Source: a virus (taxonomy: Duplodnaviria; Heunggongvirae; Uroviricota; Caudoviricetes). Taken from it: a stretch of 6,146 bases of DNA. Of the stretch, positions 30-5,928 are shown piece by piece. The stretch spans positions 1-6,146 of the IMG/VR virus record IMGVR_UViG_2645727970_000001; one strand, written 5' to 3'. Under the pieces are notes generated by a model that was not told the DNA's origin, did no database searches, and worked only from the letters and a program-made list of their open reading frames with translations. Each line of letters begins with the position of its first letter. Position 1 is the stretch's first letter. The position numbers and the translations under genes were made by a program.

Positions 30-57
30 GTGTATTCATTCCAACGAGTGAATACAC
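30..57. repeat. Perfect 9-bp inverted repeat (gtgtattca / tgaatacac) with 10-nt spacer; possible RNA hairpin or protein-binding site
   Basis: Positions 30-38 are the exact reverse complement of 49-57. No T-tract follows, so it is not a classic terminator. Confidence 0.4.
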
Positions 58-119
58 GGAGCAATGTCGCTCGTAACTAAACAGGAGCCGACTTGTTCTG
101 ATTATTGGAAATCTTCTTT

Positions 120-145
120 GCCCTCCAGTGTGAGGGCATTTTTTT
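120..145 (+). terminator. Rho-independent terminator-like hairpin upstream of the first ORF
   Basis: 6-bp GC-rich stem gccctc(120-125)/gagggc(132-137), loop cagtgt, followed by a run of seven T (139-145). Oriented for + strand transcription. Confidence 0.6.
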
Positions 146-157
146 GACGGAGGAAAT

Positions 158-469
158 ATGAAATTACGTGTCTGGCATATCCCGCAAGTTCCTATGAAGC
201 CGTTCATTGTAGAAGTGGCAAGTGTTGAAGAGGGTGTTCGCCTGATGGATGCACTGGCTGATTATGATGCCTTTCAGTATGACAACAATATCAAGCCTGA
301 CTACTGCAATGCTAACGGCCTTGAGATGTGGGATGAGAGCATTACTGATGAAGATTTATCAGAGATGGGGCTTACGGATCGCTGGGTAGATTGGTACAGC
401 GAATGCCAATGTTACGACGACCCACGTAAATATATCGAAAGCCTGAAAGAAGAAACCTCAGCAGCCTGA
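158..469 (+). CDS. Hypothetical small acidic prophage protein (103 aa)
   Basis: ORF with SD ggagg 6 nt upstream of ATG 158. Translation is D/E-rich (about 23 acidic against about 9 basic residues by my count) with several Trp/Tyr and 3 Cys. No family recognised. Confidence 0.7.
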   Translation: MKLRVWHIPQVPMKPFIVEVASVEEGVRLMDALADYDAFQYDNNIKPDYCNANGLEMWDESITDEDLSEMGLTDRWVDWYSECQCYDDPRKYIESLKEETSAA

Positions 470-504: not shown

Positions 505-1473
505 ATGAGTGAAGTAACAGATTTAGTTGTTATTGAAAAAGCAAATGCAATGACTGTATTTCAGTCTGCCGACCAGATTGAAGAAATCCTTCAAAAGGTT
601 GAACGTGAAGTTATGTCCTTTGTGCCTGATATCACAACGGCAAAGGGCAGAAAGGAGATCGCTTCTCTGGCGTATAAAGTTGCGCAGACGAAAACATATC
701 TCGATGGTCTTGGTAAAGACCTTGTTGCTGAACTGAAGGAAATTCCAAAGCTAATTGATGCTAACCGCAAGACAGTGCGCGATCGCCTTGATGAACTGAA
801 AGCCAAGGCGCGCCAGCCTCTTACTGATTATGAGGAAGAACAGGCGCGGATTAAAGCCGAAGAAGAAGCTAAGGCAGCAGCTGAAGCTCTCGCAAAGCAA
901 ATTGAGTCTGACCATGAAATAGCGATTTTGATGGATCGCGAATTTGACCGCCAAAGAGAAGAGGCAAGACTCAAAGCGGAGCAGGAAAAGCGAGAGCATG
1001 AAGAACGCTTAAAAAGAGAAGCTGAAGAGAAAGCCAGAGCAGAAGCCGAAGCAAAGGCAAAAGCCGAAATTGAAGCAGCAGCAAGGCGAGAAGCAGAAGC
1101 TAAGGCCGCAGCGGAACGTGCAGAGCGTGAACGCATTGAAGCCGAGCAACGAGCACAGCGCGAAGCAAAAGAGGCAGCAGAACGAGCTGAAAGAGAAAAG
1201 CAGGCGGCAATTGAAGCAGAACGCCGAAAAGCACAGGAGGAGGCTGAACGAATCCGGCGCGAGGCTGAAGCAAAAGAGCAAGCCAGAATAGCAGAAGAAA
1301 AAAGAATCAAGGACGAAGAAGAGCGCAGAGCAAAGGATAAAGCTCACCGGAAAGAAGTAAATAACAAAATACTTGCTGACCTTATCAAGGTTGGCGCATC
1401 AGAAGATGTTGCTAAAAATATCATAACAGCCATCGTAAAAGGCGAAGTATTCGCAACAAAAATAACCTACTAA
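505..1473 (+). CDS. Hypothetical phage protein with long central E/R/K/A-rich helical (coiled-coil or single alpha-helix) region, 322 aa
   Basis: Consensus SD taaggagg 7 nt upstream of ATG 505. N-terminal ~110 aa and C-terminal ~40 aa look globular; residues ~115-285 are low-complexity AEAKAKAE/ERAERE-type repeats. Opposite-strand ORFs across this span are repeat artefacts. Confidence 0.75.
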   Translation: MSEVTDLVVIEKANAMTVFQSADQIEEILQKVEREVMSFVPDITTAKGRKEIASLAYKVAQTKTYLDGLGKDLVAELKEIPKLIDANRKTVRDRLDELKAKARQPLTDYEEEQARIKAEEEAKAAAEALAKQIESDHEIAILMDREFDRQREEARLKAEQEKREHEERLKREAEEKARAEAEAKAKAEIEAAARREAEAKAAAERAERERIEAEQRAQREAKEAAERAEREKQAAIEAERRKAQEEAERIRREAEAKEQARIAEEKRIKDEEERRAKDKAHRKEVNNKILADLIKVGASEDVAKNIITAIVKGEVFATKITY

Positions 1474-1497: not shown

Positions 1498-1629
1498 ATG
1501 ATTTACGCAATCGCGGGAGGCGCTCGCATGGGTGCCTTCCAACTAAATGAATCTTTACTTGAACGAATCACCCGTAAATTACGTGACGGATGGAAAAGAG
1601 TTGAGGTCTTATTATGCGCAATGAAATAG
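1498..1629 (+). CDS. cIII: CIII-like regulator (FtsH/HflB inhibitor that stabilises CII), short 43-aa form
   Basis: Not in the supplied ORF track (too short). ATG 1498 preceded by aagga. Translation MIYAIAGGARMGAFQLNESLLERITRKLRDGWKRVEVLLCAMK contains the ESLLERITRKLRDGWKR core that I recall from phage lambda CIII. The ORF ends earlier than lambda's 54 aa. Confidence 0.8.
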   Translation: MIYAIAGGARMGAFQLNESLLERITRKLRDGWKRVEVLLCAMK

Positions 1630-1766
1630 CCATCAATCACCAGATGCTTCGTGCTGCACAGAACAAAGCAGTAATAGCCAGATTTATTGGTGATTCCAAA
1701 ATGTGGCTTGAAGCAAATAAAGCGATGAAATCAGCTATCAACCTTCCGTGGTATCGCAGGAAATGA
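1614..1766 (+). CDS. kil: Kil-like small protein (candidate FtsZ/cell-division inhibitor), 50 aa
   Basis: Not in the ORF track. ATG 1614 lies inside the 3' end of cIII with gagg upstream. Translation MRNEIAINHQMLRAAQNKAVIARFIGDSKMWLEANKAMKSAINLPWYRRK has the FIGDxKMWxEA-type core I associate with lambda Kil / Rac KilR; position directly after cIII matches lambda gene order. Confidence 0.55.
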   Translation: MRNEIAINHQMLRAAQNKAVIARFIGDSKMWLEANKAMKSAINLPWYRRK

Positions 1767-1978
1767 GTTTTACAGATAACTGGTCAGACGAAGAATTCAT
1801 TCGTCAGATGAAAGAATTAATCGGTAACGAAGGAGATATTCATGTCACTTGCAACCACAGTGAAGGAGAGCAAGTTACAGAGACGCATGTACACGCAGAA
1901 AGCGCTAAGGTATCGCCAGAAGGGAGACCGCGAAGGAATGCGCGTATGCCTAAATGCGGCAAAGACTCGAAGTATTAA
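1763..1978 (+). CDS. Hypothetical small protein (71 aa from ATG 1763; track lists a GTG start at 1748)
   Basis: ATG 1763 overlaps the kil stop (aATGa), suggesting translational coupling. Acidic N-terminus, His/Cys-containing C-terminal half (HVTCNH...THVH...KCGK). Sits where gam/arf-type genes lie in lambda/P22-like phages but has no recognisable similarity. Confidence 0.55.
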   Translation: MSFTDNWSDEEFIRQMKELIGNEGDIHVTCNHSEGEQVTETHVHAESAKVSPEGRPRRNARMPKCGKDSKY

Positions 1979-2021: not shown

Positions 2022-2729
2022 ATGGATTTGAACAAATTCGATGAGCCATTCAGCCCTGAAGATATCGAATGGCGAATACAGCAAAGCGGTAAAACACGCG
2101 ATGGCAAGGTGTGGGCTATGGTGCTGGCTTATGTCACGAACAGGGCAATCATGAAACGCCTGGACGATGTTTGCGGCAAAGCAGGATGGCGCAATGAATA
2201 CCGCGATATTCCCAACAACGGAGGCGTTGAATGCGGCATATCAATAAAGATTGATTCCGAATGGGTAACCAAATGGGATGCTGCTGAAAACACGCAGGTA
2301 GAAGCCGTCAAAGGCGGTCGTTCCGGTGCAATGAAGCGCGCTGCCGTTCAGTGGGGAATCGGTCGGTATCTGTATAACCTTGAGGAAGGTTTCGCACAAA
2401 CATCTCTCGATAAAAAGCAGGGGTGGCACAGGGCAAAACTGAAGGATGGAACAGGATTTTACTGGCTCCCTCCATCGCTGCCGGGATGGGCAATCCCAGC
2501 ATCAGATAAAAAACCATCACCAGAAAATACCAACCAGAAATCTCCATCGGTTGACTGCGAACAAATCCTGAAAGACTTCAGCGATTATGCATCAACAGAA
2601 ACTGACAAGAAAAAACTCATCGAGCGTTATCAGCGTGACTGGCAATTAATGGCTGGCAACGAGGAGGCACAGGCTAAATGCGTTCAGGTAATGAACATCA
2701 GAGTTAACGAACTAAAACAGGCGGCATAA
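2022..2729 (+). CDS. Rad52/Rad22-family single-strand annealing protein (Sak-like phage recombinase), 235 aa
   Basis: SD gaggtga upstream of ATG 2022. Translation contains EAVKGGRSGAMKRAAVQWGIGRYLY, matching the conserved Rad52-family signature. Occupies the position of lambda bet. Confidence 0.8.
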   Translation: MDLNKFDEPFSPEDIEWRIQQSGKTRDGKVWAMVLAYVTNRAIMKRLDDVCGKAGWRNEYRDIPNNGGVECGISIKIDSEWVTKWDAAENTQVEAVKGGRSGAMKRAAVQWGIGRYLYNLEEGFAQTSLDKKQGWHRAKLKDGTGFYWLPPSLPGWAIPASDKKPSPENTNQKSPSVDCEQILKDFSDYASTETDKKKLIERYQRDWQLMAGNEEAQAKCVQVMNIRVNELKQAA

Positions 2730-3197
2730 ATGTCTCACTTGGACGGAATTATTAAAAGATTCGAGTCCAGCTACAAAGTTAATGAAACAACAGGTTGCTG
2801 GGAGTCTACCTATTCAAAAAACAAAGGAGGATACACAAAATTTGTAGCCTTTGGCGTAACAATGCTTTCTCATCGGGTTGCTTTTGAGCTTTATCACTCC
2901 CCCATTCCATCTGGGAAGATGGTTTGCCACAAATGCGATAACCCATGCTGCGTTAATCCTGAACATCTCTTTTTAGGTAGCGCGCAAGAAAACATGGACG
3001 ACAAGATAGCAAAAGGAAGGCATCGTGGAGCCAAGAAAGGTCATGCTCATCATGGTGCAAAATTAACAGAGTGGCAGGTTATAGAAATTAGGAAAAGACT
3101 CTCTGAAAAAGAGAGTCAGTACAAGATAGCAAAAGACATGGGTGTATCTCAATCAATTATAAGCAACATAAAAACTGGCAAGAGGTGGAGCAAATGA
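2730..3197 (+). CDS. HNH endonuclease (HNH_3-type, probable free-standing homing-type nuclease) with C-terminal helix-turn-helix-like region, 155 aa
   Basis: ATG 2730 directly abuts the upstream TAA (TAAATG). Motif [23 protein letters not shown] fits the H...C..C...N..H...N pattern of HNH nucleases. The coding sequence looks AT-richer than its neighbours by eye. Confidence 0.8.
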
Positions 3198-3700
3198 GTT
3201 CTCGCGGGATAAATAAGGTGATTATCCTTGGTCGGGTAGGACAAGACCCGGAAGTTCGATACTCACCATCAGGAACAGCGTTCGCTAACCTGACAATAGC
3301 CACGTCAGAACAATGGCGAGATAAAAATACTGGCGAGCAAAAGGAATTGACTGAATGGCATCGTGTTGCTGTATCCGGGAAACTGGCTGAGGTCGTGGGG
3401 CAGTATGTAAAAAAAGGTGATCAGATTTATTTCGAGGGAATGCTGAGAACCAGAAAGTGGAAAGACCAGTCAGGGCAAGACCGTTACACAACCGAGGTTC
3501 ATGTCGGAATTAATGGCGTGATGCAAATGCTTGGCGGCATTGGCGACAGCAAACAACAAGCAGCCAGCAGGCAATCACAGAAGCCACAGCAGCAATCATC
3601 ACCAGCACAACACAACGAACCTCCGATGGATTTTGACGACGACATACCCTTTGCACCAGTAACTCTCCCCTTCCCTCGTCACGCTATTCACGCAATTTAA
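3194..3700 (+). CDS. ssb: Single-stranded DNA-binding protein (phage-encoded SSB), 168 aa from ATG 3194
   Basis: N-terminus [23 protein letters not shown]...TEWHRV...[19 protein letters not shown] is close to E. coli SSB. ATG 3194 overlaps the HNH stop (aATGa); the track's GTG at 3185 is less likely. Q/S-rich linker then [11 protein letters not shown], but the frame continues 15 codons ([15 protein letters not shown]) before TAA. Confidence 0.95.
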
Positions 3701-3713
3701 TCAGGAGAAAAAC

Positions 3714-4010
3714 ATGCCAGCGCCTCTGTATGGTGCGGACGACGCACGCCGCTGTTCCGGCAATTCCGTATCGGAGGTGCTGGATAAATTCAGAAAAAAC
3801 TACGATCGGATAATGTCTCTACCGCAGGAAACGAAAGAGGAAAAGGAATTTCGCTATTGTATATGGCTTGCAGAGAAAGAAGAGCGCGAGCGAATTTACC
3901 AGACATCAATCCGACCATTCCGCAAAGCCACATATACCCACTTCCCTGAATATATCGACCCGCGCCTGCGTAATTACCGCTCACGCTATGGCGCTATCAG
4001 TAATGACTGA
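3714..4010 (+). CDS. Hypothetical prophage protein (98 aa)
   Basis: SD aggag 8 nt upstream of ATG 3714, 13 nt after the ssb stop. No recognisable motif; basic and Tyr/Arg-rich C-terminus. Confidence 0.65.
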
Positions 4011-4020
4011 GGAATTTACC

Positions 4021-4215
4021 ATGAGAGGACTTGCATACAATCCCGGCATTCTTCCGGCAGAAATGATTATTCGCCAACGCGTAAAGCCAATGCCATCGAG
4101 AGAGGAATTTCTTAAGAGAAATTCTTCTCCGTCAGTGAATCAAAACAAATATGTGACTGCTCCCCGCCCTGTCGGGCGAGGCTTCCCACTTCTCAGGCCG
4201 CAACCGTCTGTATGA
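4021..4215 (+). CDS. Small prophage ORF (64 aa as read) whose 3' part runs into the IS right end and tnpB; probably truncated or fused by the insertion
   Basis: SD tgagga 8 nt upstream of ATG 4021, 10 nt after the previous stop. The track's longer form (3868..4215) overlaps the 98-aa ORF and is unlikely. From about 4145 onward the sequence is IS-derived, so the native C-terminus is unknown. Confidence 0.35.
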
Positions 4216-4300
4216 CGGATTTACGCTGGCCTCCATGGGCAGAGACGACGTGTCCCGCCGCCTTTAGCTCCAGTATTCCTTTTTGCCGGATATTGAGTGC
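4125..4300 (-). ncRNA. Putative TnpB guide RNA (omega/reRNA) spanning the 3' end of tnpB, the IS right end and adjacent flank (predicted, not directly visible)
   Basis: Inferred from established TnpB biology: the guide RNA derives from the tnpB 3' end plus right end, with the guide read from flanking DNA. Only the hairpin at 4162-4181 is seen directly; extent is a guess. Confidence 0.3.
4162..4181. repeat. Subterminal imperfect palindrome of the IS, tnpB-proximal (right end)
   Basis: ccccgccc-tgtc-gggcgagg: 5-bp cgccc/gggcg stem with a conserved C/A mismatch, flanked by ct...ttc. Near-identical to the hairpin at 5887-5907. Confidence 0.65.
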
Positions 4301-5368
4301 TGCATTGATATCCCGGTCATGTTCAATACCGCATTCAGGGCATCGCCAGATGCGTTTATGAAGTGGCATTTCCGGCATCTTGTAACCACAACAATGGCAG
4401 GTTTTCGAACTGGCAAACCACTGGTCGAGTTTTACCAGGTGAACGCCTTTTTCTGCTGCCTTGTACTCCAGCTTTACGATGAAGCTGTGCCAGCCCGCAT
4501 CACCTATCGCTCTTGCCAGATTGTGGTTTTTCATCATGTTGGCTGTTTTCAGCGTCTCGACAATTACCGCTTGGTTTTCGTCAACAATTGCACGAGAAAG
4601 TTTGTGTTGAAAATCAGCACGGGCATTGGCAACCCGTTCGTGTAACGCAGCCAGTCGGATTCTGGCCTTTTTACGGTTCGCGCTTCCCTTTTGTTTGCGG
4701 GATAGCGCTTTTTGTTTGCGTCGCAGATTACGGCTGGCATTGATGAGATGACGAGGATTCGGAGCTTTTCCCCCATCAGACATGATGACATAGTGCTCAA
4801 GCCCCATATCCACACCAGTAATCTTTTCTTCCTCCAGATACGCTGGTTTCTCTGGTGTGGGAATACCGTCTTCACAAAGGATAGATGCGTAGTATTTCCC
4901 GGTGGCACTGCGAGTGATTGTTATGCTCCTCACTTTTCCCGCCATTACACGGTGTATACGCGTTTCTATCGGTGCCAGCTTAGGAATTTTGATGGCATTC
5001 TCCAGTACTTTAATCCCGACACAATGGTAGCTCGATTGCTTCCCATGTTTACGTTTAAACGTCGGGAATCGTGCTTTCAGCTTCGGATTAAAAAAGTTGG
5101 AAAACGCCACATCAAGATTAATCACCGCCTGTTGCAATGCCATTGAATCAAATTCTTTAAGCCAGGCATACCTGCGGGACTTCTTCGCCACAGACAACAA
5201 CGGTTTTAAATCTTTACGCGGACGTAAATTCACTCCGTGTCGCTGGTAAGCGTGTTTTTTGATGTTAAGAGCTTTGTTGTATGCAAAACGTACCGCACCG
5301 AACTGGGCATTGAGATACTCAGCCTGTTCGGTAGTGGGATATATGCGTACTTTTGTCGCTCTTAACAT
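4193..5368 (-). CDS. tnpB: TnpB (IS200/IS605 OrfB; RuvC-like RNA-guided endonuclease), 391 aa
   Basis: Translation shows a split RuvC fold with candidate catalytic residues in GVDMGLEHY (D), AVIVETLK (E) and [10 protein letters not shown] (D), plus a CxxC...CxxC zinc finger (CHCCGYK...CPECG). Full length with ATG start. Confidence 0.9.
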
Positions 5369-5412
5369 ACTCAGCGCTCATTGATATTATTCAATTATTT
5401 TAACAAATTGAG

Positions 5413-5850
5413 GTGATTTTTCAATTGAGCGAACAACATGAATCTCTTGAAGGCTTCCTTCGGAAGCGTCACAGTGTGAGCAAGCTCGTAGTACATTTAA
5501 TTTTCACGACAAAGTATCGCAGAAAACTTTTTGACGGATGCATGATAGAGCAACTACGGGAAGCTTTTTGTTCCGCCGCAGCAAAACTTGAATGCGAAAT
5601 TCTTGAAATGGACGGTGAGACAGATCATGTGCATCTGTTGGTTGCTTATCCGCCCAAACTGGCAGTCAGCGTCATGGTGAATAATTTGAAATCAGTATCG
5701 TCACGTTTGCTGTGCCAGCAAAACACACATTTACGAACACAGAGCAAAACAGGCTTGCTTTGGTCAAGATCCTACTTTGCATGTAGTGCCGGAGGTGCGA
5801 CGATAGAAACGCTCAGAACTTACGTTCAAAGCCAGTCAACGCCGGAATGA
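5413..5850 (+). CDS. tnpA: TnpA, IS200-type Y1 (HuH) transposase; translation probably starts at TTG 5425 rather than GTG 5413
   Basis: KYRRKLF near the N-terminus, HuH motif DHVHLLV, catalytic-type Tyr in LRTYVQSQ and LWSRSYF...GGA match the IS200 TnpA pattern. No in-frame ATG; GAGGTGA (5410-5416) sits 8 nt before TTG 5425. Divergent from tnpB across 44 bp. Confidence 0.85.
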   Translation: MIFQLSEQHESLEGFLRKRHSVSKLVVHLIFTTKYRRKLFDGCMIEQLREAFCSAAAKLECEILEMDGETDHVHLLVAYPPKLAVSVMVNNLKSVSSRLLCQQNTHLRTQSKTGLLWSRSYFACSAGGATIETLRTYVQSQSTPE

Positions 5851-5857
5851 TTTTTTT

Positions 5858-5875
5858 AAAGCCCTTCGGGCTTTT
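5858..5875 (+). other. Perfect 7-bp hairpin with TTCG loop just after the tnpA stop, inside the IS left end
   Basis: aaagccc-ttcg-gggcttt, preceded by seven T. Only a weak T-run follows, so it may be a structural or transposition-related element rather than a strong terminator. Confidence 0.4.
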
Positions 5876-5886
5876 CCGCCTTTCCT

Positions 5887-5907
5887 CCCCGCCCGCATTG
5901 GGCGAGG
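5887..5907. repeat. Subterminal imperfect palindrome of the IS, tnpA-proximal (left end)
   Basis: ccccgccc-gcatt-gggcgagg: same stem and same C/A mismatch as 4162-4181, same orientation, about 1.7 kb away. Confidence 0.65.
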
Positions 5908-5928
5908 GTTCTCGGCGGTTGTTTGCTG

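Follow-up and report, generated by a model that had tools for sequence, protein, structure and literature searches.

The closest described relative of the gene analysed here is gene 17 of the Salmonella phage P22, which lies in the early-left (PL) operon, 3′ of gene 24 and ral and 5′ of c3 and kil. The primary papers on the exclusion of P22 17- are those of Susskind and Botstein from 1978 and of Semerjian et al. from 1989. The RefSeq record of P22 states that gene 17 "allows growth on phage Fels2 lysogen", and its product (gp17) has been described as counteracting a superinfection exclusion system of Fels-2 (PMC6486243, PMC9409062); the gain of gene 17 by Kuttervirus has been proposed, in the same vein, as a means to counteract Fels-2 exclusion (PMC9409062). 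The escape conferred by the P22 gene was shown genetically on Fels-2 lysogens, three sources naming Fels-2 and one source Fels-1 as the excluding resident prophage. The P22 record and three papers thus present gp17, without dissent, as a counter-exclusion factor, and the label of "superinfection exclusion protein" under which the family is filed is misleading, since what the sources describe is escape from exclusion. This mislabelling of PF17420 and phrog_1510 has already led the authors of a genome paper astray, who proposed a role in tail completion through confusion of the family with the tail-completion protein gp17 of SPP1 (PMC9769974). Among the papers searched, none offers a mechanism for any member of the GP17 family or an experiment on the orthologue described below, and a literature search for a modern assignment of gp17 to anti-defence yielded secondary statements only.

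Other small accessory proteins of PL operons are known to disarm host enzymes, such as Ral of lambda and P22, which acts on type I restriction, and Abc2 of P22, which acts on RecBCD. Ral is encoded near gene 17 in P22, and Abc2 in the DNA analysed here, and neither of them is related in sequence to gp17. Moreover, their targets are chromosomal enzymes of the host, whereas the reports on gp17 place its target among the functions of a heterologous prophage. T7 Ocr, ArdA and T4 Arn are small and very acidic anti-restriction proteins of phages and plasmids, which are made early. The fold of ERH (enhancer of rudimentary homologue) has also been named among the systems for comparison with gp17.

The gene at 158..469 and its operon

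The whole stretch of viral DNA that was analysed (6,146 nucleotides, hereafter the window) reads, on its + strand, along the transcription of a lambdoid or P22-like PL operon. The listing of its open reading frames includes a 103-aa ORF that spans exactly positions 158..469 (+), stop codon counted, and starts with an ATG; a ribosome-binding site, GGAGGA (149..154, +), can be read from the sequence 4 nt 5′ of this codon. An earlier note on this DNA had not recognised the protein, which a profile search assigns to a named Pfam family over its full length (PF17420, GP17; E=1.6e-55, 185.7 bits versus a cut-off of 25, profile positions 1-98 of 98), together with a match to phrog_1510 (E=9.5e-58). 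No family other than GP17 is matched in Pfam, PADLOC or NCBIfam, although the lack of hits in PADLOC is only weakly informative, as its models represent defence and not anti-defence systems. GP17 is neither a structural nor a metabolic family, the kinds of homology that the note had regarded as contrary to its own proposal of a DNA-mimic or anti-defence protein.

A tblastn search of phage genomes gave 86.4% identity to the product of P22 gene 17, over 100% of the length (X15637, NC_002371), and the nucleotide alignment revealed the same ribosome-binding site and start in P22. Most of the 14 substitutions that separate both proteins fall within residues 56-77, in or beside a variable acidic segment, and the core motif of the GP17 family (P9-Q10, F16, Y36-D37-x-F39-Q40, K46-P-D48-Y49-x-N51 and W76/W79) is complete in the protein of the window. 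The comparison of the two genes yields a dN of 0.077 and a dS of 0.76, and because the resulting dN/dS is 0.10, the gene 17 homologue is under strong purifying selection. The P22 gene is of equal length and occupies the same place of the PL operon, 5′ of cIII and kil. By its sequence and position, the gene is orthologous to P22 gene 17 and belongs to prophages of E. coli. The two differ in that P22 is a phage of Salmonella whereas the gene described here resides in prophages of E. coli, and in that the latter carry a 322-aa ORF between gene 17 and cIII that P22 lacks.

The exact protein is present in 145 blocks of a public assembly collection, and 135 of 5426 complete E. coli genomes carry the gene, for which the usual annotation is "superinfection exclusion protein". 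These occurrences, together with the GP17 and PHROG 1510 matches and the low dN/dS, rule out a chance ORF, and 158..469 is a real gene. It is also an already known one, catalogued in RefSeq, Pfam and PHROGs, and is routine as a sequence feature.

The small size and the large negative charge noted at first sight were borne out: the 103 residues include 23 D+E and 9 K+R, for a net charge of -14 and a pI of 4.14, which makes gp17 the most acidic product of the window. Its reported richness in aromatic residues was confirmed as well (12 F/W/Y, or 11.7%, four of them Trp), although the enrichment is only a modest one, since the Abc2 of the same window reaches 13.3%. Neither a transmembrane segment (top 19-residue hydropathy, 1.02) nor a signal peptide was found in the protein.

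Regarding its neighbourhood, gene 17 is followed on the + strand by the 322-aa ORF (505..1473; phrog_1376, function unknown), which is very rich in Glu, Ala, Lys and Arg, has no Pfam match, bears the label "TolA" in some records and is probably a long coiled coil. The next genes are cIII (1498..1629, +), corresponding to the PF02061 Lambda_CIII gene of related prophages; kil (1614..1766, +; Pfam Lambda_Kil, E=1.7e-20; phrog_2055); a small ORF (1748..1978, +) of phrog_2123 ("recombinase"); and, also on the + strand, those for a Rad52-type annealing protein (2022..2729), an HNH endonuclease (2730..3197), an SSB (3185..3700) and Abc2 (3714..4010). This succession of cIII and kil, and then a recombination module with Abc2, agrees with the early-left context 5′ of cIII that had been proposed for the acidic ORF. 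Its placement at the head of an array does not hold, however. In four E. coli prophages with an identical gp17, the block formed by gene 17, the 322-aa ORF, cIII and kil is constant and its flanks are mosaic, and gene 17 is preceded in all four of them by genes for the repressor and N, as well as by one or two variable ORFs; within the window it is merely the first complete ORF.

Two other features of the operon deserve mention in their own right. The HNH endonuclease, which has a C-terminal helix-turn-helix, is encoded between the Rad52-type recombinase and the SSB, and the end of its gene overlaps the start of the SSB gene. In related prophages, the recombinase is directly followed by a different SSB allele, with no HNH gene in between, and this order suggests that the HNH endonuclease and the SSB form a mobile module. 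Further downstream, an IS200/IS605 element (about 4161-5925, with genes on both strands, as recognised by NCBIfam models) is inserted in the PL operon, where it truncates the 3′ end of a small DUF2737-type gene starting at 4021. Its cargo comprises a TnpB RNA-guided nuclease (4193..5368, -) and a TnpA transposase (5413..5850, +), and an Rfam scan of the window gave no guide RNA match for this TnpB element. Related prophages free of the element align to the window through position 4160 and resume at 5926.

The region 5′ of gene 17 is structured, with a fold z-score of -4.3 for positions 20-160. RNA folding predicts a leader hairpin with a 9-bp perfect stem, GTGTATTCA/TGAATACAC (30..57, +), which is followed by a boxA-like motif, CGCTCGTAAC (68-77, +), invariant between the window and P22. 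Directly 5′ of the gene, a terminator scan and RNA folding detect a hairpin with a G+C-rich stem (119-138) and a run of seven T (119..145 in all, +), which scores as an intrinsic terminator. P22 has a hairpin and a T-run at this second site and a hairpin at the site of the first, the stem sequences being different in both cases. The leader has no match in Rfam, and no sigma-70-like promoter was found within positions 1-1700. From the terminator-like hairpin, the lack of a promoter and the N gene upstream, we infer that expression of gene 17 probably depends on N-type antitermination and would thus belong to the lytic cycle and not to the prophage state. The structured leader could serve for regulated termination or, alternatively, for processing.

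Fold, conserved residues and distribution of the GP17 family

An AlphaFold2 model of gp17 built on 106 family sequences (pLDDT 92.6, pTM 0.81) shows a single compact alpha/beta domain, with strands at residues 3-8, 16-20, 52-58 and 76-78 and helices at 23-42, 64-70 and 89-102. A Foldseek search of this model against the PDB gave nothing at E<=0.001, the fold matches in BFVD belong to the same family only, and a sequence search of the PDB returned chance matches (E>=0.13). As regards T7 Ocr, ArdA and T4 Arn, gp17 has no Pfam or PDB sequence match to any of them, and no DNA mimic is among the fold matches listed.

Conservation was assessed at two depths. Among 106 close relatives, residues L33, Y36, D37, F39, Q40, K46, D48 and Y49 are invariant. 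In a divergent set of 149 sequences, each of them standing for one cluster of a library grouped at 50% identity, Y36 is present in 100%, F16, D37 and D48 in 99%, Q40 in 96%, K46 and N51 in 95%, P9 and Q10 in 94-95%, and W76 in 93%. The residues of the core motif are, overall, either invariant or conserved in at least 89% of both close and distant members. Residues 61-75, on the other hand, form the most acidic segment of gp17 and yet the least conserved one, rich in indels, although acidity as such is a property of the whole family (mean net charge of -10.8, and -5 or lower in 97% of the 149 divergent members). Our reading of this pattern is that the function would be carried by a specific patch of aromatic and polar residues, and not by a generic array of acidic ones, with the charge in a supporting role.

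The family is a very large one: the gp17 profile retrieves 1178 clusters (at 50% identity) with E<=0.001, and 761 with E<=1e-10. Its hosts include P22-like and lambdoid prophages, the virulent phage N4, whose gp18 is annotated as "similar to P22 gp17", and Kuttervirus and related Ackermannviridae, and there are further homologues in phages of Pectobacterium, Serratia and Erwinia, as well as in replicons of Bacillus, Paenibacillus, Clostridium and Vibrio at 30-47% identity. The occurrence in strictly lytic phages favours a role in infection over one in lysogen immunity. The persistence of a near-invariant motif across phyla suggests, as far as alignments can tell, a conserved partner or ligand. 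Some members are longer than gp17. Two homologues (P0050 and P0063) begin with some 55 additional residues that include a Walker-A-like motif, GxxxxGK[ST], and others are fused to DUF6166 or to Phage_gp49_66, the family of N4 Gp49 and Sf6 gene 66. These extensions and fusions may be either gene-calling read-throughs or real fusions to accessory modules, and none of them was interpretable as a hint of function.

A probable counter-defence role and its possible targets

The most likely explanation, to which we assign a probability of about 0.7, is that the gene is a P22 gene 17 orthologue encoding an early counter-defence factor, a binder that would neutralise an exclusion effector or its signal, with AbiU/AIPR as a candidate target. 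The counter-defence role is suggested by the 86% identity and the shared genomic position with the P22 gene, and it is by way of this homology to a genetically characterised protein that the anti-defence alternative contemplated in the earlier note gains its support. According to this explanation, gp17 would be soluble and cytoplasmic, and synthesised early in the lytic cycle from the PL operon, its gene lying 3′ of N as do cIII and kil. The terminator-like hairpin 5′ of the gene would probably restrict this synthesis to times of active antitermination, and keep the protein from being made in the lysogen. The protein would then let an infecting or induced phage grow in cells where, in its absence, a heterologous prophage in residence would bring the infection to an abortive end. 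As for the mechanism, gp17 could act as a stoichiometric binder of either the exclusion effector or the signal that activates it, through a binding surface made of the near-invariant patch (P9-Q10, F16, Y36-D37-x-F39-Q40, K46-P-D48-Y49-x-N51 and W76..W79), and its negative charge would help in the competition for a nucleic-acid-binding surface.

The most concrete candidate for a target would be the AbiU/AIPR protein encoded in the cargo region of Fels-2 (NC_010463). This protein of 565 aa, STM2723.1 (22639-24336, -), matches the AbiU model of PADLOC (E=2.7e-112) and the AIPR family of Pfam (E=8.8e-43), and its gene sits between the portal gene and those for DinI and replication; the region from portal to replication genes is a site of cargo genes in P2-like phages. 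The abiU gene is followed by STM2726, an unassigned ORF of 243 aa. The presence of abiU in Fels-2, with function unknown, had already been reported (PMC3853940), and the AbiU1/AIPR family is predicted to hold a nuclease domain of the ParB superfamily (Makarova et al., PMC3632139). What points to AbiU is that it is the sole recognisable defence gene among the accessory genes of Fels-2 that were scanned; there is no direct tie between both proteins, and no paper among those searched connects them. Consequently, the AbiU/AIPR protein is our best guess for the function counteracted by gp17, a tentative one with the odds against it. In a scan of the Fels-1 left arm, which was not exhaustive, seven candidate accessory proteins gave no PADLOC match and hence no candidate target. 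At megablast sensitivity, moreover, the Fels-2-type AIPR gene is found in 7 of the 5426 E. coli genomes, against 135 for gene 17, and because of this rarity the E. coli allele may face different or more divergent targets.

A 2024 preprint states that AbiU was previously without a known anti-defence, and gives the name of Surt to an anti-AbiU of Vibrio phages (bioRxiv 10.1101/2024.06.14.598830). Its supplement names two proteins as predicted candidates for anti-AbiU activity, one of 195 aa and the other of 36 aa, without specifying which of them is Surt. If gp17 targets the AbiU of Fels-2, these Vibrio phage candidates would be functional analogues of it. Kinship between gp17 and the 195-aa candidate was considered and rejected (BLASTP E=0.36). 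A broader version of the proposal appears rather unlikely to us, namely that the GP17 family as a whole, widespread and cross-phylum as it is, inhibits abortive infection by AbiU/AIPR proteins, whose carriers include P2-like prophages such as Fels-2, by means of its invariant patch and acidic surface.

The DNA mimicry originally suspected, in which the acidic surface of gp17 would imitate the phosphate backbone and block a DNA-binding defence enzyme, whether one of restriction or a nuclease that is RecBCD-like or, as for AbiU/AIPR, of the ParB type, finds some backing in the net charge of -14 and pI of 4.1, in the family-wide acidity and in the helix 23-42, whose acidic residues 24/25, 31, 35, 37 and 42 are spaced onto one face. 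The location of P22 gene 17 in an accessory stretch with ral also agrees with it, and so does the prediction of AbiU/AIPR proteins as nucleases acting on DNA (PMC3632139); were gp17 directed against a nuclease of the ParB type, it could reasonably act by virtue of its acidity, as a competitor for the surface that binds DNA, which keeps a version of the idea alive. Nevertheless, gp17 belongs to no other family than its own among those of Pfam, PADLOC and NCBIfam, and its conserved residues are mainly aromatic and polar, plus the basic K46, and do not form the acidic array expected of DNA mimics. The combination of this patch with an acidic segment (61-75) that is the least conserved of the protein weakens the hypothesis, which we regard as improbable. 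An argument against the binder model itself is that a motif near-invariant in Enterobacteria, Bacillus, Clostridium and Vibrio alike fits better with an invariant ligand than with direct contact with a fast-evolving defence protein. Small molecules are one option for such a ligand, and host components of universal conservation are another. The first option would make gp17 a sponge or a small enzyme, whose pocket binds or modifies a nucleotide-type signal or a metabolite of the exclusion, by analogy with the phage proteins that sequester immune signalling nucleotides. A set of Y, D, F, Q, K, D, Y, N and W residues nearly invariant across phyla would be typical of a ligand pocket, more so than of the interfaces by which proteins meet in an arms race, and the very wide family, with its 1178 clusters, is in keeping with it. 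This option seems quite improbable in view of the weak and generic fold matches, the lack of likeness to any known sponge or enzyme family, and a strongly acidic make-up that, with only one basic residue conserved, is poorly suited to anionic nucleotides; besides, many of the conserved aromatics may just build the hydrophobic core. To our knowledge, no signalling molecule has been described for the exclusion by Fels-2 or Fels-1.

The second option, a host-takeover factor acting on a conserved component such as the transcription or replication machinery, whose loss would sensitise the phage to abortive infection by the prophage in an indirect manner, is in line with the conservation of the motif across phyla, which suggests a conserved partner. 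It is also in line with the N4 homologue, encoded directly 3′ of the genes for RNAP1, RNAP2 and a 32-kDa protein, and with one homologue fused to a segment that resembles the C-terminal domain of the RNA polymerase alpha subunit. The latter match, however, scores 23.0 bits, below the Pfam threshold of 23.8, and the secondary sources place the need for gene 17 on lysogens only, which points to a defence-specific role and makes a takeover function very unlikely. Equally slim are the chances of gp17 being what its name says, a genuine superinfection exclusion protein that shields the cell or the lysogen from other phages. The Pfam name, "Superinfection exclusion gene product 17", and those of PHROG and RefSeq speak for it, but the sources from which the name derives, notes and papers alike, tell of escape from exclusion. 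In addition, the gene belongs to a PL operon under repressor control, is preceded by a terminator-like hairpin and lacks its own promoter-like site, its homologues are common in virulent phages, and the protein has no membrane segment or signal peptide, unlike those of the SieA or Imm type. Membership of gp17 among the exclusion proteins of the SieA, SieB and T4 Imm type was likewise rejected given the absence of a transmembrane segment, the repressed operon and the presence in virulent phages.

If AbiU/AIPR proteins such as that of Fels-2 are indeed what the GP17 family counteracts, this would provide a molecular explanation for an interaction between phage and prophage first described decades ago, and would add an anti-AbiU factor of broad distribution that has no relation to the candidates of Vibrio phages. 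In any case, the GP17 family spans temperate and virulent phages of Proteobacteria, and also replicons of Firmicutes, and the mechanism and target of such a widespread phage protein constitute a real question, if one of modest scope.
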